Positions 3,766 to 57,480 of a stretch of DNA of 64,000 bases are shown piece by piece. Under the pieces are notes generated by a model that was given only the letters and a program-made list of their open reading frames with translations, was not told where the DNA came from and made no database searches. The stretch covers positions 12,132 through 76,131 of IMG/VR virus record IMGVR_UViG_2778261223_000007. One strand, 5' to 3'. The translations under genes were made by a program, and so were the position numbers. This stretch comes from a virus. Taxonomy: Duplodnaviria > Heunggongvirae > Uroviricota > Caudoviricetes. Numbering within the stretch: the stretch's first letter is position 1; each line of letters opens with the position of its first letter.

Positions 3766-4611
3766 ATGAAAGATAATTGGCTTAAGGAACGATTAACTAA
3801 AGTAAAACAGGATTCACATCTCTGGAGTGCATTTATAGACGCTTTACAGGATGTCTGGAATGAGGCAGTAGAACCAATATTAACAAGAATAAGTAACAGA
3901 AAATCCTTCTTCACTATGGACAGTGAGGACATGGATGCCCGCATTGCTGAATACGGGCGTTTTTTCGTTATCACTGAAAAAGATAAGGCTCGTAGGCCAA
4001 TGCTGCTGGCACAACGTTTAGATGAAGTGCACTTTAAAGGCACTATCTTGCCAATTGAGCAGACATTCTGGCGTGAATTCGGTTGTATTCCTGTTAGTTG
4101 GGAACCGCTGTATGCACCTGTAAATATAGAAAAACACCCCTATGGTTCATATTTTGCGACCGAAATAGAAATACCTACGGCACAGGCTCAATTCGGTGAG
4201 TTCTTCCTGACATCAAGGGGGCTGGTCGTTGTTGATCAGAACAAGCTATATCGCTCATATGGAGAGCAGGATAAAGAAGCCGCTGTACAGAAATTGTTAT
4301 CTGACTTCGAAACAGTAATAGCCCCTTTATTGCCATTGCATATTGTTTTTGATGGCGTCTCGTTTCGGCTTAGTGCTGTATTCCCTGAAGTGGCAGAAAT
4401 ACTAAATTGCTTGTCTACGGATGTTTCGGTAATTGAAGGTGTTTATGTTACTGAGAGTATGGCTGATATGCTATCCCGTAGTGATACCTCCTGCCAGGTA
4501 GACAATATTTCTCTTAACGCCATACCGAACCGAACGGCAGAAAAGCAATTACATCTTGATGTAACCCCACTCGATGCGTGGCCTTTGGATTACCACCTTC
4601 AACCTGTTTAA
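3766..4611 (+). CDS. baseplate/tail protein (I-like)
   Basis: 281 aa ORF with ATG start, between J-like gene and fibre genes; hairpin follows the stop. Confidence 0.35.
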   Translation: MKDNWLKERLTKVKQDSHLWSAFIDALQDVWNEAVEPILTRISNRKSFFTMDSEDMDARIAEYGRFFVITEKDKARRPMLLAQRLDEVHFKGTILPIEQTFWREFGCIPVSWEPLYAPVNIEKHPYGSYFATEIEIPTAQAQFGEFFLTSRGLVVVDQNKLYRSYGEQDKEAAVQKLLSDFETVIAPLLPLHIVFDGVSFRLSAVFPEVAEILNCLSTDVSVIEGVYVTESMADMLSRSDTSCQVDNISLNAIPNRTAEKQLHLDVTPLDAWPLDYHLQPV

Positions 4612-20510: not shown

Positions 20511-20522
20511 TTGCCTTGTTAA

Positions 20523-20539
20523 GTTAAATTTCTAACATA
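20523..20539 (+). promoter_or_regulatory. operator-like motif GTTAAATTTCTAACATA
   Basis: Member of the dispersed TTTCTAACA motif family; upstream of RepL-like gene. Confidence 0.5.
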
Positions 20540-21725: not shown

Positions 21726-21744
21726 TATGTTAGAAAATTAATTT
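21726..21744 (-). promoter_or_regulatory. operator-like motif (rc AAATTAATTTTCTAACATA)
   Basis: Motif family member; upstream of immI-like module 1 promoter. Confidence 0.5.
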
Positions 21745-32670: not shown

Positions 32671-32689
32671 TATGTTAGAAAACTAATTT
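32671..32689 (-). promoter_or_regulatory. operator-like motif (rc AAATTAGTTTTCTAACATA)
   Basis: Motif family member; 20 bp upstream of the 32711 gene. Confidence 0.5.
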
Positions 32690-32710
32690 AACAAAGTGAC
32701 GGGAACAGCA

Positions 32711-33919
32711 ATGAGTCAACACACTGATACTTCTAATCTGGAAATTATCTCGACAGCAATTGAAACGCTGCGCACACAAATCGCTCTTATACAGAAACGG
32801 AATCCTGGTGATGACCTGTCAAAGCGACTGCACGAGAGTGTCATTGCCACTACAGATAACCTGGTGGCGGAAATCAACAAGCTGCTTGATGATGGGGCAG
32901 TTGATTACAATAAGCTGGTGGATCAGTTTGAGGAATACCAACAAGCCGTTAATGATGGCTTGATCCGTTTTTCACAAGTCACAGGCGTATCAGCGACAGT
33001 TGAAAGCCTGGGTGATGCAGTTAATCAATTTGCCACGAATATGCGTAATGAGATCGGCAATCTGGAAGCGCGTCTTGAACAGGCAAATACACTGCGTAAA
33101 TCTGCTGAAGCCGATTTGAACCGTTACAAAAAAGACTATCCGCCCACCCTGACAAAGCGGCTGGATGTTGCGGAGAAGGATAACCGCACGCTGAAAAGAG
33201 AGCGCCGGGAACTAAAAGAGCGTTTAACCAAGCTCAATCAGCAATGCATTGATTATCAAGGCGAAGGCGTCACACTGCGTAAAAAGTTGGCTACAGCGCA
33301 GAGCATTATCGAAACATTAAAGCGAGAGTGCTCACAGCTTGGTCACGATCTGAACCGTGCTTGTGGCATGGGACAAAGACCAGAGACATTTCCACTTATG
33401 TATGACGGAAGGGATGCCATTGCCTACATCCATGAGTATCCGCACGGCCTGGTTGCGGAAACTGGGCAGCGTGGCGAAGCACTGCTGACGGCTAATTACC
33501 ATCAACAAATCAGAACCAATCGCCTGTTAACGATGGATGTGATCCCATCGGTATGGGGAACGCCGCTTTACTATCGCCTGCCGGGCTTCGAAAAGGACTG
33601 GAATACCGACATAGACGAATGTCTCGCAGATAAAATTATGGCGTACCTGGAGACGGATTTTCCGCGCTTATATCGCCGGATTATGGACTCAAAGGATGCG
33701 CCAATCGATGAATTAAAAATGCGTCCGGAGACGCTGGAGGCAATCAAGCAGACGGAGTTTGATACTGTATTCAGTGTGGCCTGCATTCCAAGCTGTTTCC
33801 ATGAAAGCATTCCGTTCATGCAAGGAGATCGTCGTCAGGAAATCATTGACGCTTGCCGGGTATGGGCGAACGAATGGGATAAGAAGAATGGGGGTGTAGA
33901 AGATCTTTACGGGAAGTAA
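32711..33919 (+). CDS. hypothetical coiled-coil protein, bracketed by operator-like motifs
   Basis: ~403 aa from the ATG at 32711 (frame opens at GTG 32696); operator-like motifs at 32671..32689 and 33919..33938. Confidence 0.5.
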   Translation: MSQHTDTSNLEIISTAIETLRTQIALIQKRNPGDDLSKRLHESVIATTDNLVAEINKLLDDGAVDYNKLVDQFEEYQQAVNDGLIRFSQVTGVSATVESLGDAVNQFATNMRNEIGNLEARLEQANTLRKSAEADLNRYKKDYPPTLTKRLDVAEKDNRTLKRERRELKERLTKLNQQCIDYQGEGVTLRKKLATAQSIIETLKRECSQLGHDLNRACGMGQRPETFPLMYDGRDAIAYIHEYPHGLVAETGQRGEALLTANYHQQIRTNRLLTMDVIPSVWGTPLYYRLPGFEKDWNTDIDECLADKIMAYLETDFPRLYRRIMDSKDAPIDELKMRPETLEAIKQTEFDTVFSVACIPSCFHESIPFMQGDRRQEIIDACRVWANEWDKKNGGVEDLYGK

Positions 33920-33938
33920 TGTGTTAGAAATCTAAAAT
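33919..33938 (-). promoter_or_regulatory. operator-like motif (rc ATTTTAGATTTCTAACACAT)
   Basis: Motif family member; at the stop of the 32711..33919 gene. Confidence 0.45.
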
Positions 33939-35153
33939 CACAATTCGAATGTGTTGATTGTGAAGGTAACTTAACATAGAATTTTCCTTGCTGGTGGGCG
34001 GTACCCACGTTTCGCTTGCTGGGCTTGATAGTCACTTATTGGTTATTGTTCGCCCACCAGCATTTAACAAATTAAAGCGTTAGAAAAGTATAGTAACGCA
34101 AGAGCACGCTTTGGCACTGTGCAGGCAAAAGTTCAGCAGGTTTAGTGCGGAAAGTGGTTTCAGAGAGAGCACTTTGCGGAGTAAACGACAATACATGTTG
34201 AGCCACGGAAGGTCTTTTTAAGGTGTTCATTGATGATGGTCCGGCAGAGAGTAACGGTACATGCTGCATCTAATCATCAATGCACATCTTCAACATTAAG
34301 GAGGCATAGGGATTTTTGTGGCGGTTACCTTTTGCCCTGAGTCTCCTTAATGTTGCAGTAATGCACCTATGCGGATGTGGCCTTGCATTGTGTCTTGAAA
34401 GAATGGGGTAAGGCCGGGGATATCCCCAGGGGGAGGCACTCCCGCTGCAACGAACAGCCACAGACGGCAGTCGAGTGATGGGAACGTGAAAAGACTTTAA
34501 ACCTCGTTATGGCTGGCGTGGCAAACGCGACAACCGAGACAGAGCGGTGACGGGCGGAGAGAGTGCCGCATCAAGAAAGAAGCCGACTTGTGATCCCTTT
34601 CAGCGGGCATTTGAAAGTGAATCCAACTCAGGCAGTCGGCTTCTTTCTTGTGTGAGATGTAGCGTATTTGCCCATCTTCGGGTGGGCTTTTTTAGGGTTT
34701 TCGTCATGGTTAGCGACTTTGCGGCGGTTTAGAAACCGACCATTAAAGTAAATGCAAACGATGATCTGATGATGGTAGCGGCCTAAGAAGCCAGACGCCA
34801 CGGGGTATGAGTCGTCCCCCGTCAAAAAATCGACCGCAGAGTGTCCCCGTCTGTGTATTAGGGAACGGGGAGGCATAACAGGCAAGGGCGCTGGTGTGAT
34901 TAACCAGATGAATGAGAAGGGTCAGGTCTTTCTGGTCAGCGCCCTTACCTGTTACGTCCCTCCCGCGTAACAGCCATTGCTTAATGGCATCCTGGGGGAA
35001 TTTCTTGTAACGGGTATATCCCGTCATGCTGAAGGCGCTAATCACGCTGGAAGCCAGGGTTGTGCATCCCCTGTTACCGAATTGCAGCCAGGGCGCGGTG
35101 CGCCGAAAAGCATACGGAGGTGGAAGCCCTCGCCGGAGACGTACCCGGCAAGT

Positions 35154-35229
35154 GATGGTGTAGCTCAGCGGTTAGAGCGGTTGACTGTTAATCAACGGGT
35201 CGATGGTTCAAATCCATCCACCATCGCCA
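35154..35229 (+). tRNA. tRNA-Asn (anticodon GTT)
   Basis: 76 nt; acceptor stem GATGGTG/CACCATC, anticodon loop CTGTTAA, T-loop TTCAAAT, 3' CCA encoded. Confidence 0.85.
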
Positions 35230-35231
35230 AT

Positions 35232-35307
35232 GCCGGTTTAGCTCAGTTGGTAGAGCGCCTGCCTTGTAAGCAGGATGTCAGCGGTTCGAGTCCGTTAATC
35301 GGCACCA
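35232..35307 (+). tRNA. tRNA-Thr (anticodon TGT)
   Basis: 76 nt; GCCGGTTTAGCTCAGTTGGTAGAGC..., anticodon loop CTTGTAA, T-loop TTCGAGT, 3' CCA. Confidence 0.85.
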
Positions 35308-35308
35308 G

Positions 35309-35395
35309 CACAACAGGTAAGGGTATTTTGCGACGTCGGAGATCGCCGAGCTTGGCAGAGGGTTCGAATCCCTACGAAGTACCCTTACCGTTGTG
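35309..35395 (+). ncRNA. tRNA-like element: T-arm consensus (GGTTCGAATCC) inside an extended 16-bp hairpin
   Basis: Arms CACAACAGGTAAGGGTA and TACCCTTACCGTTGTG are reverse complements; cannot be folded into a canonical cloverleaf by eye. Confidence 0.3.
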
Positions 35396-35772
35396 ATGAA
35401 GTGCAGCTCTTTGAAGCAACCAGAAGATAAGCATCTGGCTTCACAACATAAACCGCAGGAACGACCAATAAACGGTAGTCCGTACGGAGAACACCCCGTT
35501 GAGGAAGAGGCCTGGCCGGAACCGTAACCGGCACTACAACGTTGAGAACACTGGCGTAACGGGGTCATATCCCAATCTACGAATAAATGTTGCGTTGCAG
35601 CGTGACAACCAGTGTTCTCAACGTTGTGGTGGATTCGCAGGCTGATGCGATAGCTTTCTTGGATGTTAGGGAAATGCGGCCGCAAATCTTCCCTTTCGCG
35701 AGCGGTGATCGTCCGTAGTCCTAATTGGCTGCACCGTATGCCGGAGATTCAGTACCGGCCACCACAACGGCC

Positions 35773-35859
35773 GGAGAGTAGGGCGCATGGTGCTCAAGCG
35801 GTCTTGAAAACCGTCCCATTGCGCAAGCGATGATGGTTCGATTCCATTACTCTCCGCCA
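35773..35859 (+). tRNA. type II tRNA, Ser-like (anticodon TGA), possibly degenerate D-arm
   Basis: 87 nt; acceptor GGAGAGT/ACTCTCC + G + CCA; anticodon arm GCGGTCTTGAAAACCGT resembles E. coli serT; long variable arm; T-loop TTCGATT. Confidence 0.5.
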
Positions 35860-36126
35860 GCGCAACGTTAAGAGTATTTGGCTAATTAAGCGAATGCCGG
35901 AAGCAGAACCGGATCACCAAATGCGTACAGGCGTCATCGCCGCCCAGCCAGCCAAGTGCTCTTACCATTGCGGTGAATGCGGCTAAGCGCACGCGGAACA
36001 GTTAAAACAATCCTCCTTAGTGGTTAAGTCAAAAATCCCGGCGTTAATTGTTAACTGGTTAACGTCACCTGGAGGCACCAGGCACCGCAACCTAATAAAT
36101 ACGTCATGTTTATTGAGGGATAACCA

Positions 36127-36561
36127 ATGTTCGGTAAATTTTTCGGTAAGAAAGTCGCTTCAGCAAAAGTAGAGCTGAAAAGGGTTGAGAATCGCGATCT
36201 GATGGAGGCCATTATCGGTGGCTGTTTGTTGGTGTCTGCCGCAGATGGTGAAATCGAAAAGGAAGAAACAGCGAAACTTGATCAGCTTGTCCGCTCTAAT
36301 CCTCGCTTAAGTCATTTTGGCAACGAAATTACCGCAACAATCACCCGTTTTACTGAGCAACTGGAAGCTGGTTTCCGTGTTGGTCGCATGAATATCCTTC
36401 GCGAAATTGAAGATATCAAAAATGATCCAAAAGAAGCGGAAGAAGTATTCGTTAACATGCTGACGATTGCAGAAGCGGACGGTGAAATCGAGCCAGCAGA
36501 ACACAAAGTACTGGAAGAAGTAGGCCGTCGTTTGGGCCTTCGTGTGGAAGATTATCTGTAA
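36127..36561 (+). CDS. tciA: TerB-like protein (tellurite-resistance/colicin-immunity family, P1 TciA-like)
   Basis: 144 aa; two repeats of the (A/E)ADGEIE motif (SAADGEIEKEE ... AEADGEIEPAE) typical of TerB; embedded among the tRNAs as in P1. Confidence 0.7.
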   Translation: MFGKFFGKKVASAKVELKRVENRDLMEAIIGGCLLVSAADGEIEKEETAKLDQLVRSNPRLSHFGNEITATITRFTEQLEAGFRVGRMNILREIEDIKNDPKEAEEVFVNMLTIAEADGEIEPAEHKVLEEVGRRLGLRVEDYL

Positions 36562-36844: not shown

Positions 36845-36920
36845 GGCCCCTTAGCTCAGTGGTTAGAGCTGGCGACTCATAATCGCACGGTCACCGGTTC
36901 AAGTCCGGTAGGGGCCACCA
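36845..36920 (+). tRNA. tRNA-Ile2 (anticodon CAT, lysidine type) or tRNA-Met
   Basis: 76 nt, near-identical to E. coli ileX over most of its length (GGCCCCTTAGCTCAGTGGTTAGAGC.GGCGACTCATAATCGC...GGTTCAAGTCC...GGGGCCACCA). Confidence 0.85.
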
Positions 36921-37374
36921 TATTTGGTTGTAACACGGCGTCTGGCACATGCGTCGTTAGCGGTCTGGTGACGTTAAAGGGGTTACCTTTTCCCCTAGCT
37001 CAGGCAACAAACCAGGTAGCCGGAATGTGCAAGCCCCGTTCATATCGTCGGACCGAGGATTCACCATCCTGGCGATTCGGTGTGACAGCCGGAAGAGCAC
37101 GGCGCACAACAGGAAAAGGCGTTTAATTAGCGTGAGCGCCGTTTCCGTTGTGGTAATTGCGGCTATGCGCTCGTGACGAAGCCATTTTCATTCACTACGT
37201 TCTGATAAGTGACGTCGCCAGGAGTGGCTAACCTGGCAGGTGGAGGCACCACCGCCACAACTCCTTTCAATTCATCATATAGCCGCTCAGGCTGTACCCC
37301 TTAATTAATACGAAGTTACGACATCACTACCGGCACTTCCGGGGGATAGTCGCGCGTGTAAAAAAGGAGACGTT

Positions 37375-43171: not shown

Positions 43172-44200
43172 ATGAGTGAATTAATTATCTCTGGCAGTTC
43201 CGGTGGTTTTCTGCGCAACATTGGCAAAGAGTACCAGGAAGCCGCAGAAAACTTTATGCGGTTCATGAATGATCAGGGTGCTTATGCGCCGAATACTCTG
43301 CGCGACCTCCGGTTGGTGTTTCATTCCTGGGCGCGCTGGTGTCACGCTCGCCAGCTTGCCTGGTTTCCGATCTCACCAGAAATGGCCCGCGAGTATTTTC
43401 TTCAGTTGCATGATGCCGATCTGGCTTCGACCACCATTGATAAGCACTACGCCATGCTTAACATGCTGCTTTCTCATTGTGGCCTTCCGCCACTTTCGGA
43501 TGATAAAAGTGTTTCTCTGGCTATGCGGCGTATCCGGCGCGAAGCGGCAACGGAAAAAGGCGAACGAACAGGCCAGGCTATACCGCTGCGATGGGACGAC
43601 CTGAAACTGCTCGACGTCCTGTTGTCCAGGTCAGAACGGCTGGTGGACCTGCGCAACCGGGCTTTTCTCTTTGTTGCATACAATACGCTGATGCGTATGT
43701 CGGAAATCTCGCGTATTCGTGTAGGAGATCTGGACCAAACAGGTGACACTGTCACGCTACATATTTCACACACGAAGACAATAACGACCGCCGCCGGGCT
43801 TGATAAGGTGCTTTCCCGTCGCACTACTGCTGTGCTGAATGACTGGCTGGATGTTTCCGGGCTTCGTGAACATCCTGACGCGGTGCTGTTCCCGCCGATA
43901 CACCGTAGCAATAAGGCCAGGATTACGACAACGCCCCTTACTGCACCTGCAATGGAGAAAATATTCAGCGACGCCTGGGTGTTGCTGAATAAAAGGGATG
44001 CCACGCCAAACAAAGGGAGATACCGGACGTGGACCGGGCATAGTGCTCGTGTCGGGGCCGCTATCGATATGGCTGAAAAGCAGGTGTCTATGGTGGAGAT
44101 TATGCAGGAAGGAACCTGGAAGAAACCGGAAACACTTATGCGGTATCTGCGCCGTGGCGGTGTGTCTGTGGGGGCTAATAGCCGCTTGATGGATTCATAA
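43172..44200 (+). CDS. dre: Cre-family tyrosine recombinase (Dre-like)
   Basis: 342 aa; blocks SWARWCHARQLAWFP, AMLNMLLSHCGLPPLSDDKSVSLAMRRIRRE, WTGHSARVGAAIDMA...MRYLR align with Cre (catalytic R, H-x-x-R, Y); cognate rox site upstream. Confidence 0.9.
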   Translation: MSELIISGSSGGFLRNIGKEYQEAAENFMRFMNDQGAYAPNTLRDLRLVFHSWARWCHARQLAWFPISPEMAREYFLQLHDADLASTTIDKHYAMLNMLLSHCGLPPLSDDKSVSLAMRRIRREAATEKGERTGQAIPLRWDDLKLLDVLLSRSERLVDLRNRAFLFVAYNTLMRMSEISRIRVGDLDQTGDTVTLHISHTKTITTAAGLDKVLSRRTTAVLNDWLDVSGLREHPDAVLFPPIHRSNKARITTTPLTAPAMEKIFSDAWVLLNKRDATPNKGRYRTWTGHSARVGAAIDMAEKQVSMVEIMQEGTWKKPETLMRYLRRGGVSVGANSRLMDS

Positions 44201-44218
44201 ATTAAATTTCTAACACAT
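44201..44218 (+). promoter_or_regulatory. operator-like motif ATTAAATTTCTAACACAT
   Basis: Motif family member; immediately after the recombinase stop. Confidence 0.5.
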
Positions 44219-53421: not shown

Positions 53422-53454
53422 ATGTGTTAGAAAACTAAAATCAATGTTCTAACG
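53422..53454 (-). promoter_or_regulatory. paired operator-like motifs in inverted orientation (GTTAGAA ... TTCTAAC, 14 bp apart)
   Basis: Full motif at 53422..53441 plus inverted partial copy at 53444..53454; upstream of the minus-strand operon starting at 53382. Confidence 0.5.
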
Positions 53455-56890: not shown

Positions 56891-57469
56891 ATGCAGAAAC
56901 AGAGCTATTGGGAGAAACAGAGACAAAAAGCCATGCAAAAATTGGCTGACCCAGCCTGGCGAGAGGAACAAAGGGCAAAGTGCCTTCAACAAGCTCAACG
57001 CCAGCAGCAGCGAGCGAGAGAAAAAGCCGCATCGCCTGAATATCGGCAAAAGAAAATTGAAAAAGCAAAGCAATATGAACAGCGGAGAAAAGATAAAGCT
57101 GTATCCGCTCCGTCCAAAAAAACACGCACGTCACGCGGCCTGAAAGGCAGATCACTCACAGCCGATGAACGCCGGATACAGACCGCTATCGGTGCTCTCC
57201 CCTGCATTGCCTGCCATATTCACGGGCAACATAGCCCAGTGGTATCCCTGCACCATATCTTCGGGAGAACGGCAGAGAACGCGCATAAATATGTCCTCCC
57301 TTTGTGTAAATGGCACCACCAGTACGCAGCGCCAGCCGAGGTCCGAGAACAATATCCCTGGCTGGTCCCTGTTCATGCTGACGGAAAAATAGGCGGAAAA
57401 GCAGATTTCATGCGGCACAATGCCGATGAAATGACGTTGTATCAGATGGCGATTGAATTGATAAATTAG
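56891..57469 (+). CDS. ref: HNH endonuclease, Ref-like (recombination enhancement function)
   Basis: 192 aa; basic N-terminus, then ALPCIACHIHG...SLHHIFGRT...LPLCKWHHQ HNH core and the AAPAEVREQYPWLVPVHADG block that I recall from P1 Ref; flanked by operator-like motifs. Confidence 0.7.
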   Translation: MQKQSYWEKQRQKAMQKLADPAWREEQRAKCLQQAQRQQQRAREKAASPEYRQKKIEKAKQYEQRRKDKAVSAPSKKTRTSRGLKGRSLTADERRIQTAIGALPCIACHIHGQHSPVVSLHHIFGRTAENAHKYVLPLCKWHHQYAAPAEVREQYPWLVPVHADGKIGGKADFMRHNADEMTLYQMAIELIN

Positions 57470-57480
57470 TTTTCTAACAT
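57463..57480 (+). promoter_or_regulatory. operator-like motif AAATTAGTTTTCTAACAT
   Basis: Motif family member; overlaps the ref stop. Confidence 0.5.

Follow-up and report, generated by a model that had tools for sequence, protein, structure and literature searches.

The 64,000-nucleotide (nt) window considered here, meaning the whole stretch of DNA to which the coordinates below refer, corresponds to Escherichia phage D6, a P1-like circular plasmid prophage (99.7% match), and contains a highly structured region bounded by a pmgS-like gene (32696-33919, + strand) and tciA (36127-36561, +). The first-pass annotation regarded this region as almost devoid of coding capacity, a view borne out by its eight open reading frames (ORFs), which encode 56-139 amino acids (aa) and have no Pfam matches, the sole PHROG match falling on an unstable reverse-strand ORF. 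The three or four genuine transfer RNAs (tRNAs) that had been noticed are also present, with Asn, Thr and Ser(UGA) placed inside the range by ARAGORN and a fourth, CAT (Met/Ile2), at 36845-36920. Homology to phages P1 and P7 runs from 34667 onward, with 33940-34666 restricted to D6-like plasmids, and the P1/P7 counterpart serves as leader to the ban operon, which C1 represses (Pban/Op72, 'dicF-like region', trnA, trnT, tciABC, trnI, ban). The general proposal that this is a structured-RNA locus rather than spacer DNA agrees with the 70-90% identity found across unrelated phage families, the compensatory changes in helices, and the presence of one sub-threshold member of the STnc100/PasD family. 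However, that proposal was generic and missed the main element of the region, a transfer-messenger RNA (tmRNA)-like sequence at 34693-34871 (+) positioned between two of the hairpins already described. The element consists of four parts: an antisense domain, a spacer, a resume codon with a tag ORF, and two pseudoknots.

The tmRNA-like element and its tag frame

Together with SmpB, tmRNA forms the main bacterial system for ribosome rescue and protein tagging, and the phages λimmP22, Mu and P22 depend on it. The reading frame on tmRNA is set by U and A at positions -5 and -4 relative to the resume codon, and both nucleotides are conserved in the element. The role of these two positions in framing is addressed in PMC2481249. 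Alignment of the element reveals the sequence ...UAAAU GCA AAC GAU GAU CUG AUG AUG GUA GCG GCC UAA, which is a tmRNA-type resume context followed by a tag. In D6, the spacer AAACCGACCAUUAAAGUAAAU (34732-34753, +) terminates with the pre-resume context, in which U occupies position -5 and A position -4, and the resume codon GCA opens the tag frame ANDDLMMVAA, which closes with UAA (34754-34786, +). The spacer is 21-22 nt long, about equal to nt 68-89 of host tmRNA (22 nt).

A pattern scan of IMG/VR found the element at 120 loci or more, and among the matches listed there are 22 nucleotide versions of the tag frame encoding 13 peptides, each of exactly 10 codons followed by UAA. Serratia phage 3M contributes a further tag, ANDNAFLMAA, bringing the number to 14. 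Codons 1-3 are invariant and the final Ala codon occurs in all four synonymous forms, while the other two reading frames across the tag region run into stops at variable places. The fixed length of 10 codons, the invariant resume context, and the synonymous variation in terminal Ala codons suggest that the tag frame is translated. The tags end in VAA, MAA, AVA, AAA, IAA or AAP, and none of the 14 ends in LAA, which suggests that their recognition by ClpXP/SspB would be altered.

Two H-type pseudoknots lie 3' of the tag, pseudoknot A at 34801-34834 (+; CGGGG/CCCCG, GAGUCG/CGAC) and pseudoknot B at 34836-34871 (+; GCAG/CUGU, UCCCCGU/ACGGGGA). Both are supported by covariation, with 14 of the 22 pairs altered on both sides, a score matched by none of 500 shuffles, and 91.7% of cells paired as compared with 36-47% when partners are slid. 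The Rfam models tmRNA_permuted, alpha_tmRNA and beta_tmRNA align to the pre-resume and tag region at 22-33 bits, below the gathering scores of the tmRNA-family models (47-84), and the element is not called by ARAGORN, by Rfam at the gathering score, or by the NCBI Prokaryotic Genome Annotation Pipeline (PGAP). Compared with known tmRNA (SsrA; RF00023; permuted forms RF01849-51 and RF04321), the element shares an A-rich stretch before the resume codon, including U(-5) and A(-4), the resume codon GCA itself, a 10-codon AND...AA tag ending in UAA within a small hairpin, and pseudoknots after the tag. Unlike tmRNA, it has only two pseudoknots, lacks an equivalent of pseudoknot 1 (PK1), and has no acceptor stem, no adjacent T-arm and no CCA; in addition, its 5' part, instead of being a homologue of the tmRNA 5' half, is antisense to tmRNA.

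The antisense domain

The first 33-42 nt of the element (39 nt in D6, 34693-34731, +) are antisense to nt 67-107 of host tmRNA, and the D6 domain is predicted to form a duplex of 30 base pairs (bp) with nt 67-106 at -37.5 kcal/mol. In reverse complement, nt 67-107 of E. coli tmRNA are recognizable as the 5' end AGUUUUCGU(C), which is invariant, the block GCGAC/GCGAU, GCGG, and a U-run. The host stretch, verified in the ssrA sequence, reads UAAAAA-GCCGC-AAAAAAUAGUC-GCA-AAC-GAC-GAA-AAC-U and covers PK1 loop 3, the 3' strand of the second PK1 stem, the A-rich spacer, which is single-stranded, the resume codon, and codons 2-6. With RNAduplex, each of the 28 representatives pairs with this same host site over 24-35 bp (-31 to -40 kcal/mol), the copy from a lambdoid prophage pairs there as well (35 bp, -41.4 kcal/mol), and so does a diverged variant from Rosenbergiella; extended, conserved complementarity to a defined target is found in 28 of 28 representatives plus two further variants. 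When the reverse complement is aligned locally with ssrA, scores reach 31-34 against a shuffle mean of 15.5 (standard deviation 2.2), and for the common type I none of 1000 shuffles does as well. A sense relationship of the 5' domain to the 5' half of tmRNA, hinted at by the Rfam tmRNA_permuted alignment, was rejected because the sense score is at background and the antisense score far better.

The 5' domain pairs less strongly with the coding region of the element itself, by 10-20 kcal/mol, and no better than shuffles do (z about 0). Three sequence types of the domain address the one host stretch in different registers (UUU by GCGG; UAU by GCGAU plus a U6A run; contiguous U5GUU), and the insertions and deletions that separate the types are located in internal loops, a pattern that fits the host RNA as the fixed partner. 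In full-length cofolding, the complex is favored by -8 to -15 kcal/mol and beats controls with shuffled 5' domains in three of four cases. Pairing of the spacer with ssrA consistently finds host nt 54-56, at energies that are not significant.

Distribution and genomic context

A sensitive DNA search shows that 34696-34889 has 70-89% identity to unannotated intergenic DNA of unrelated phages, including members of the Ackermannviridae (Serratia 3M, Klebsiella Menlow, Shigella Ag3), Drexlerviridae (Cronobacter CS01, ESP2949-1) and Schitoviridae (ECBP1), Akiravirus, P1, P7 and other P1-like phages, and lambdoid prophages. The orientation of the element always agrees with the direction of transcription in the matched phages, and it is often found 5' of tRNAs. 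The element is carried by 702 RefSeq records of E. coli, and nearly all of the rows listed have no annotation under the match. P1, which is among the best-studied phages, has no annotation for it, and the same holds for hundreds of plasmids and prophages of E. coli and for lytic phages belonging to at least four further families. The literature searched describes no tmRNA-like or anti-tmRNA RNA in P1 or in enterobacterial phages, and the tmRNA database papers contain no such phage form (PMC4131195; PMC11915505). Nearly all matches from a looser pattern scan of genome contigs were due to chance, and the scan yielded one true variant, the Rosenbergiella copy mentioned above (R. nectarea, locus L241, NZ_FOGC01000021, reverse strand near 3883). 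In this diverged copy the tag is ANDDYKLAAA, the 5' domain is shorter and pairs without interruption with host nt 79-106, and long-stem modules and two tRNAs follow.

The transcriptional setting differs among carriers. In P1 the element lies within the ban leader, and in an E. coli lambdoid prophage it is flanked by the antiterminator (Q) and holin genes, with pR' and tR' read from the sequence there. In Akira the element has its own sigma-70-like promoter (TTGACA-17-TAGATT) about 6 nt 5' of it, and D6 has two late-promoter-like motifs upstream. As judged from these putative transcription signals, the array looks to be expressed in the lytic phase together with the tRNA genes.

Proposed template replacement and alternative explanations

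The best explanation of these observations, to which a probability of about 0.5 is assigned, is that the region carries an array of phage non-coding RNA modules whose centrepiece would be a tmRNA-derived RNA minus its tRNA-like domain, predicted to dock on host tmRNA and to replace its tag template. On docking, the second PK1 stem would be opened and the host template would be buried, locked in the duplex. The phage strand would exit the duplex beside the PK1 S1 hairpin (host nt 67), with its own resume codon 21-22 nt further on, so that the phage template would be offered at about the host distance from that hairpin. Host Ala-tmRNA/SmpB would then perform the rescue, the ribosome would resume and terminate on the phage frame, and nascent chains would receive a phage-specified tag in place of ANDENYALAA. 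Template replacement is the simplest model that accounts for the selected tag frame as well as for the antisense domain. The bolder claim, that a widespread phage RNA hijacks ribosome rescue in trans by hybridizing to host tmRNA, silencing the host tag template and substituting its own, is offered tentatively, with the odds leaning against it. If host tmRNA is bound, this would represent a new viral route to reprogram or disable translation quality control. If the full model is true, the element would provide the first tag template supplied in trans, a phage-chosen peptide without the canonical LAA degron would alter the fate of rescued proteins, and the complex would constitute a natural tmRNA whose tRNA and mRNA functions reside on separate, non-covalently joined RNAs of different origin.

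Several observations weigh against template replacement. All of the evidence, for this and for the other readings, is computational. The cofolding gain of the D6 element is equalled by 5 of 30 controls, the duplex energies are only moderate relative to mononucleotide shuffles (z -1.8 to -6.1), and the 5' domain can fold back weakly onto its own coding region. A genome-wide search space would yield chance alignments of similar score, so the antisense argument depends on an a priori connection of tmRNA with a tmRNA-like RNA. An intrinsic terminator lies 8 nt 5' of the element in D6 and P1, and the element would therefore need read-through or processing. No earlier case in which a tag template is provided in trans is known to us. 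In the part of the supplementary tables available from an Hfq RIL-seq (mapping of RNA interactions through ligation followed by sequencing) study of enteropathogenic E. coli, ssrA appears in the gene and small-RNA annotation lists and not among the interactions, in a set that is Hfq-dependent and with carriage of the element by strain E2348/69 unchecked.

The main rival is a pure inhibitor, in which the 5' domain would only block or destroy host tmRNA (the template being masked, PK1 disrupted, or a substrate for RNase III created), the 3' part would do no more than stabilize the RNA or act as a SmpB, S1 or RNase R decoy, and the tag frame would stay untranslated. The anti-tmRNA step is common to this explanation and to template replacement, and the antisense evidence applies equally to both. 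Precedents exist, since the anti-small-RNAs AgvB and AsxR of enterohaemorrhagic E. coli prophages are established examples of prophage RNAs that pair with a core-genome non-coding RNA to alter its activity (Tree et al. 2014, as cited in PMC5286369). As described in that citing source, these are Hfq-dependent sponges with short seed mimics, in contrast to the predicted 24-35-bp interrupted duplex with tmRNA and the replacement template of the element. In a second precedent, mycobacteriophage DS6A carries a partial tmRNA that has been proposed or shown to interfere with host trans-translation (PMC4131195; PMC11915505), and this form inhibits host tmRNA while retaining the tRNA-like domain only (PMC4131195), whereas the D6 element retains only the coding part and pseudoknots, plus the antisense domain. 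However, the tag frame behaves as translated, with 10 codons kept throughout its 22 versions, and a rescue block without a stop codon would be expected to trap ribosomes that the phage needs. Pure inhibition is accordingly considered unlikely.

A poorer prospect still is that the elements are decayed tRNA or tmRNA remnants and recombination linkers, with conserved sequences at module borders, that serve as sites of homologous DNA exchange between phages and have no RNA function. The arms of the long-stem modules that flank the element are indeed mosaic between loci, with arms of two stem classes combined in L011 and L052; moreover, one cargo is found in different stems, and module order is shuffled among phages. 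Because of this mosaicism, the long stems may double as recombination joints. Nevertheless, the helices are preserved by compensatory changes, the tag frame and antisense domain are under clear constraint, and orientation always agrees with transcription, which makes an explanation without RNA function improbable.

A two-piece phage tmRNA, in which the element would be the coding piece and the acceptor piece would also be phage-encoded (for example by the tRNA-like unit at 35309-35395, here called the T-module), has in its favor that two-piece tmRNAs are known in three bacterial lineages (PMC11915505) and that the T-module lies directly 3' of the element at loci L011, L041 and L052 and directly 5' of it at L025. 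However, the T-module is found within -1000/+1500 nt of the element at only 36 of 84 loci and is absent from P7, and the complete 48-kb genome of Cronobacter phage CS01 contains the element without any tRNA or tRNA-like match, which indicates that a phage-encoded acceptor is not needed. An acceptor-stem partner for the invariant 5' GUUUUCG (CGAAAAC, with G:U allowed, plus NCCA) was sought near T-arms, and none was found in the window or in related loci. ACGAAG in the D6 T-module gives a 6-bp match that L011, L025 and L052 do not keep, and two TGGAGGCACCA matches from the same search proved to be loops of STnc100-like hairpins. The third pair of the T-module stem, as read from the alignment, is U:U or U-A rather than G:U, the T-module has no CCA, and the background-level sense similarity of the 5' domain to the tmRNA 5' half also speaks against a split molecule. 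Given the missing acceptor partner and T-arm, the case of CS01, and the sporadic association with the T-module, the element is, on sequence grounds, not a standard, permuted or phage-complemented tmRNA, and the two-piece explanation is very improbable.

The least credible alternative is a reverse-strand protein gene (phrog_27020 or P1 plp-like ORFs), since the match of ORF 34743-35045 (-) to phrog_27020 (unknown function, E 1.4e-51) and the hypothetical proteins annotated at this site in SJ46 and some plasmids are set against a longest stop-free stretch that shifts in frame and length (65-112 aa, with a non-homologous N-terminal half) among 44 P1/D6-type variants, the lack of any Pfam match, the absence of the ORF outside P1-like phages where the + strand element is conserved, and a curated P1 record with no gene here, so that the ORF was rejected as a mis-call on the complement of a structured RNA.

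Flanking RNA modules

The inverted repeats reported by the first-pass annotation were recovered at or near their described positions, and when each hairpin was compared with 200 dinucleotide shuffles, none of the shuffles was as stable (z -4.4, -4.1, -5.9, -4.7, -5.2, -6.1 and -9.4). By the same test, significance is not reached in two looser stretches, 35386-35452 and 35622-35771 (z about -1.3 to -1.4). Two of the hairpins belong to a family of long-stem modules that is shared by many loci and closed by (ACAACA)GGUAAGRGCAYUG ... CAGUGCUCUUUCC(GUUGUGG), with a 13-bp core whose third pair is a conserved mismatch, compensatory changes at more internal positions, and at least 12 types of cargo. 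To our knowledge, no earlier description exists of a 13-bp stem that combines conservation, a fixed mismatch and exchangeable cargo.

The D6 members of this family are 34867-34963 and the T-module. The former (+, z -5.2) is a module CATAACAGGCAAGGGCGCTG ... CAGCGCCCTTACCTGTTACG around a cargo hairpin; a repeat with clean 17-bp arms had been claimed at 34870..34960, and the repeat itself is present (34867-34893/34937-34963), but its arms are 27 nt long with 81% identity. The T-module (35309-35395, +, z -6.1) combines a D-arm (GCGA-CGUCGGAGA-UCGC), a T-arm (AGGG-UUCGAAU-CCCU) and a closing stem of about 21 bp. Its description as a tRNA-like unit with a canonical T-loop and an extended stem was accurate, the T-loop being UUCGAAU, the closing stem 6+15 bp, and the repeat 35316-35328/35377-35389 part of the unit. 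The D-arm and T-arm are invariant in 17 sequence variants, and a tRNA-type elbow (T-loop and GG-containing D-loop) can be read from the sequence. The unit is not a tRNA, having no anticodon arm, a stem of about 21 bp in place of a 7-bp acceptor, and no CCA, and it is called neither by ARAGORN nor by the Rfam tRNA model (E up to 10). Identity with YrlA/bacterial Y RNA (RF02553) was rejected; the only match (25.6 bits versus 69) is an artefact across two real tRNAs, and the arms follow in the order D then T, which is not permuted. In Salmonella phage Akira (L007 1690-1870), a tRNA-like structure lies 3' of the element, with an acceptor-like stem GUUGUGGUG/CUCCACAAC, a D-arm GCUC-AAUGGC-GAGC, a perfect T-arm GUAGG-UUCGAUU-CCUAC, and about 70 nt replacing the anticodon arm; ARAGORN does not call it.

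Further downstream, the module at 35532-35631 (+, z -9.4) has a 23-bp stem and the cargo UAACGGGG-UCAUAUCCC-AAUCUAC, which is also present in a P1 long-stem module. This corresponds to the reported 19-bp perfect inverted repeat, found here as 23-nt arms (35532-35554/35609-35631) of 96% identity; the single mismatch is read in the outer four positions, which leaves the 19-bp core, although the search tool did not report that core as such. The domain at 35622-35771 (+) is closed by GUUGUGGUGG / CCACCACAAC and contains the hairpins GCAGGCUGAUGC and CCGGAGAUUCAGUACCGG; its fold alone is not significant (z -1.3), and related copies are found in L052 and L250.

An STnc100/PasD-like small RNA element lies 5' of tciA at 35969-36089 (+), matching STnc100 (RF02076) at model positions 31-147 of 206 with E 3e-6 and 39.6 bits, which does not reach the gathering score of 47. 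The same element is found in P7 (43 bits) and P1 (33 bits). A second copy at 37150-37262 (+), 5' of orf6 (37375), matches 35969-36092 at 78 of 131 aligned positions, and a compensatory change from CCUGG/CCAGG to GGUGG/CCACC preserves its closing stem and GGAGGCACC hairpin. Members of the STnc100/PasD family adjoin TerB (tciA-like) genes and tRNAs in Stx-type prophages (bioRxiv 10.64898/2026.05.13.724894). The two D6 copies resemble that family in their closing stem, internal hairpins and GGAGGCACC hairpin, and differ from it in the sub-gathering score of the copy at 35969-36089, the lack of an evident terminator, and the location on a P1-like plasmid prophage; the family covers one module of the region.

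The flanking long-stem modules, including the D/T-arm elbow of the T-module, are most likely processing or stabilizing elements and independent small RNAs of the same precursor. Stable RNAs of phage tRNA clusters and hairpins processed by RNase III or RNase P are familiar, as in the species 1 and 2 RNAs of T4, the R sites of T7, and the RNase P-processed c4 RNA of P1. Like these, the modules are structured, tRNA-like or long-stem elements among tRNAs in one precursor, but they have no sequence or model match to them. The intergenic DNA near phage tRNA clusters would hold a reusable set of RNA modules that current annotation tools overlook.

The D6-specific part and the tRNA genes

For the D6-specific part (33940-34693), the one diverged relative is plasmid pHX138. 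A hairpin at 33989-34062 (+, z -4.4) has 12-bp perfect arms (TGCTGGTGGGCG / CGCCCACCAGCA) that are conserved in pHX138 around a diverged interior. Two overlapping long hairpins, 34217-34293 (z -4.1) and 34281-34365 (z -5.9), occupy 34217-34365 (+) and are specific to the D6 lineage; the second contains the repeat described at 34290..34350, with arms 34281-34311/34335-34365 and the core CAACATTAAGGAG/CTCCTTAATGTTG inside. The block 34230-34460 is about 98% identical between D6 and pHX138, with much more diverged flanks, and holds the 34281-34365 hairpin together with a GC-rich segment GGCCGGGGATATCCCCAGGGGGAGGCAC that has no family match. The repeat placed at 34567..34642 is a perfect 17-bp hairpin at 34572-34650 (+; arms 34572-34588/34634-34650, 17 of 17 bp), identified as an inverted repeat and by folding. 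Of the hairpins listed by the first-pass annotation, which proposed conservation in related phages as one check, two are limited to the D6 lineage: 34572-34650 is not kept in pHX138, and 34281-34365 is so nearly identical there as to be uninformative. P1/P7 homology starts at an intrinsic-terminator-like hairpin, GCCCATCTTCGGGTGGGC followed by T6 (34670-34693, +), whose P1 counterpart closes the 'dicF-like region' annotated in the ban leader. Identity with DicF was rejected in spite of that label, as neither P1 nor D6 has an Rfam DicF match (E up to 0.05).

The promoter-like motif GTTAGAAA-NN-TAnnnT occurs immediately 3' of the pmgS-like stop codon (33923-33938, +) and again at 34079-34094 (+), the latter in direct repeat D1 and kept in pHX138. 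The window contains eight copies as compared with 0.06 expected (130-fold excess), at 20521-20536 (-), 21729-21744 (+), 32674-32689 (+), 33923-33938 (+), 34079-34094 (+), 44199-44214 (-), 53426-53441 (+) and 57463-57478 (-), of which the one at 32674 sits just 5' of the pmgS-like gene start. The motif is probably the D6 late (Lpa-dependent) promoter, and it appears unlike the P1 late promoter.

The tRNA genes in the range are tRNA-Asn (GTT; 35154-35229, +; Rfam 74.5 bits), tRNA-Thr (TGT; 35232-35307, +; 72.9 bits) and a class II tRNA-Ser (UGA; 35773-35859, +) with G73 and an encoded CCA, all called by ARAGORN. The tRNA-Ser has no match to the general Rfam tRNA model and matches the tRNA-Sec model alone, at a sub-gathering 43 bits. 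The same gene is present but unannotated in the P7 record (L002 4095-4181), the tRNA-Sec-model scores of the two being 43-47 bits, and in P1 its place is taken by the reverse-strand genes plp and upl. Because plp (L003 3618-3995, -) overlaps the 3' end of tRNA-Thr and the entire T-module on the opposite strand, the 5' part of this P1 ORF may be non-coding. In the D6 RefSeq record (L001, NC_050154), three tRNAs are entered on the strand opposite to the ARAGORN and Rfam calls, and the CAT tRNA, the equivalent of P1 trnI, carries no annotation.

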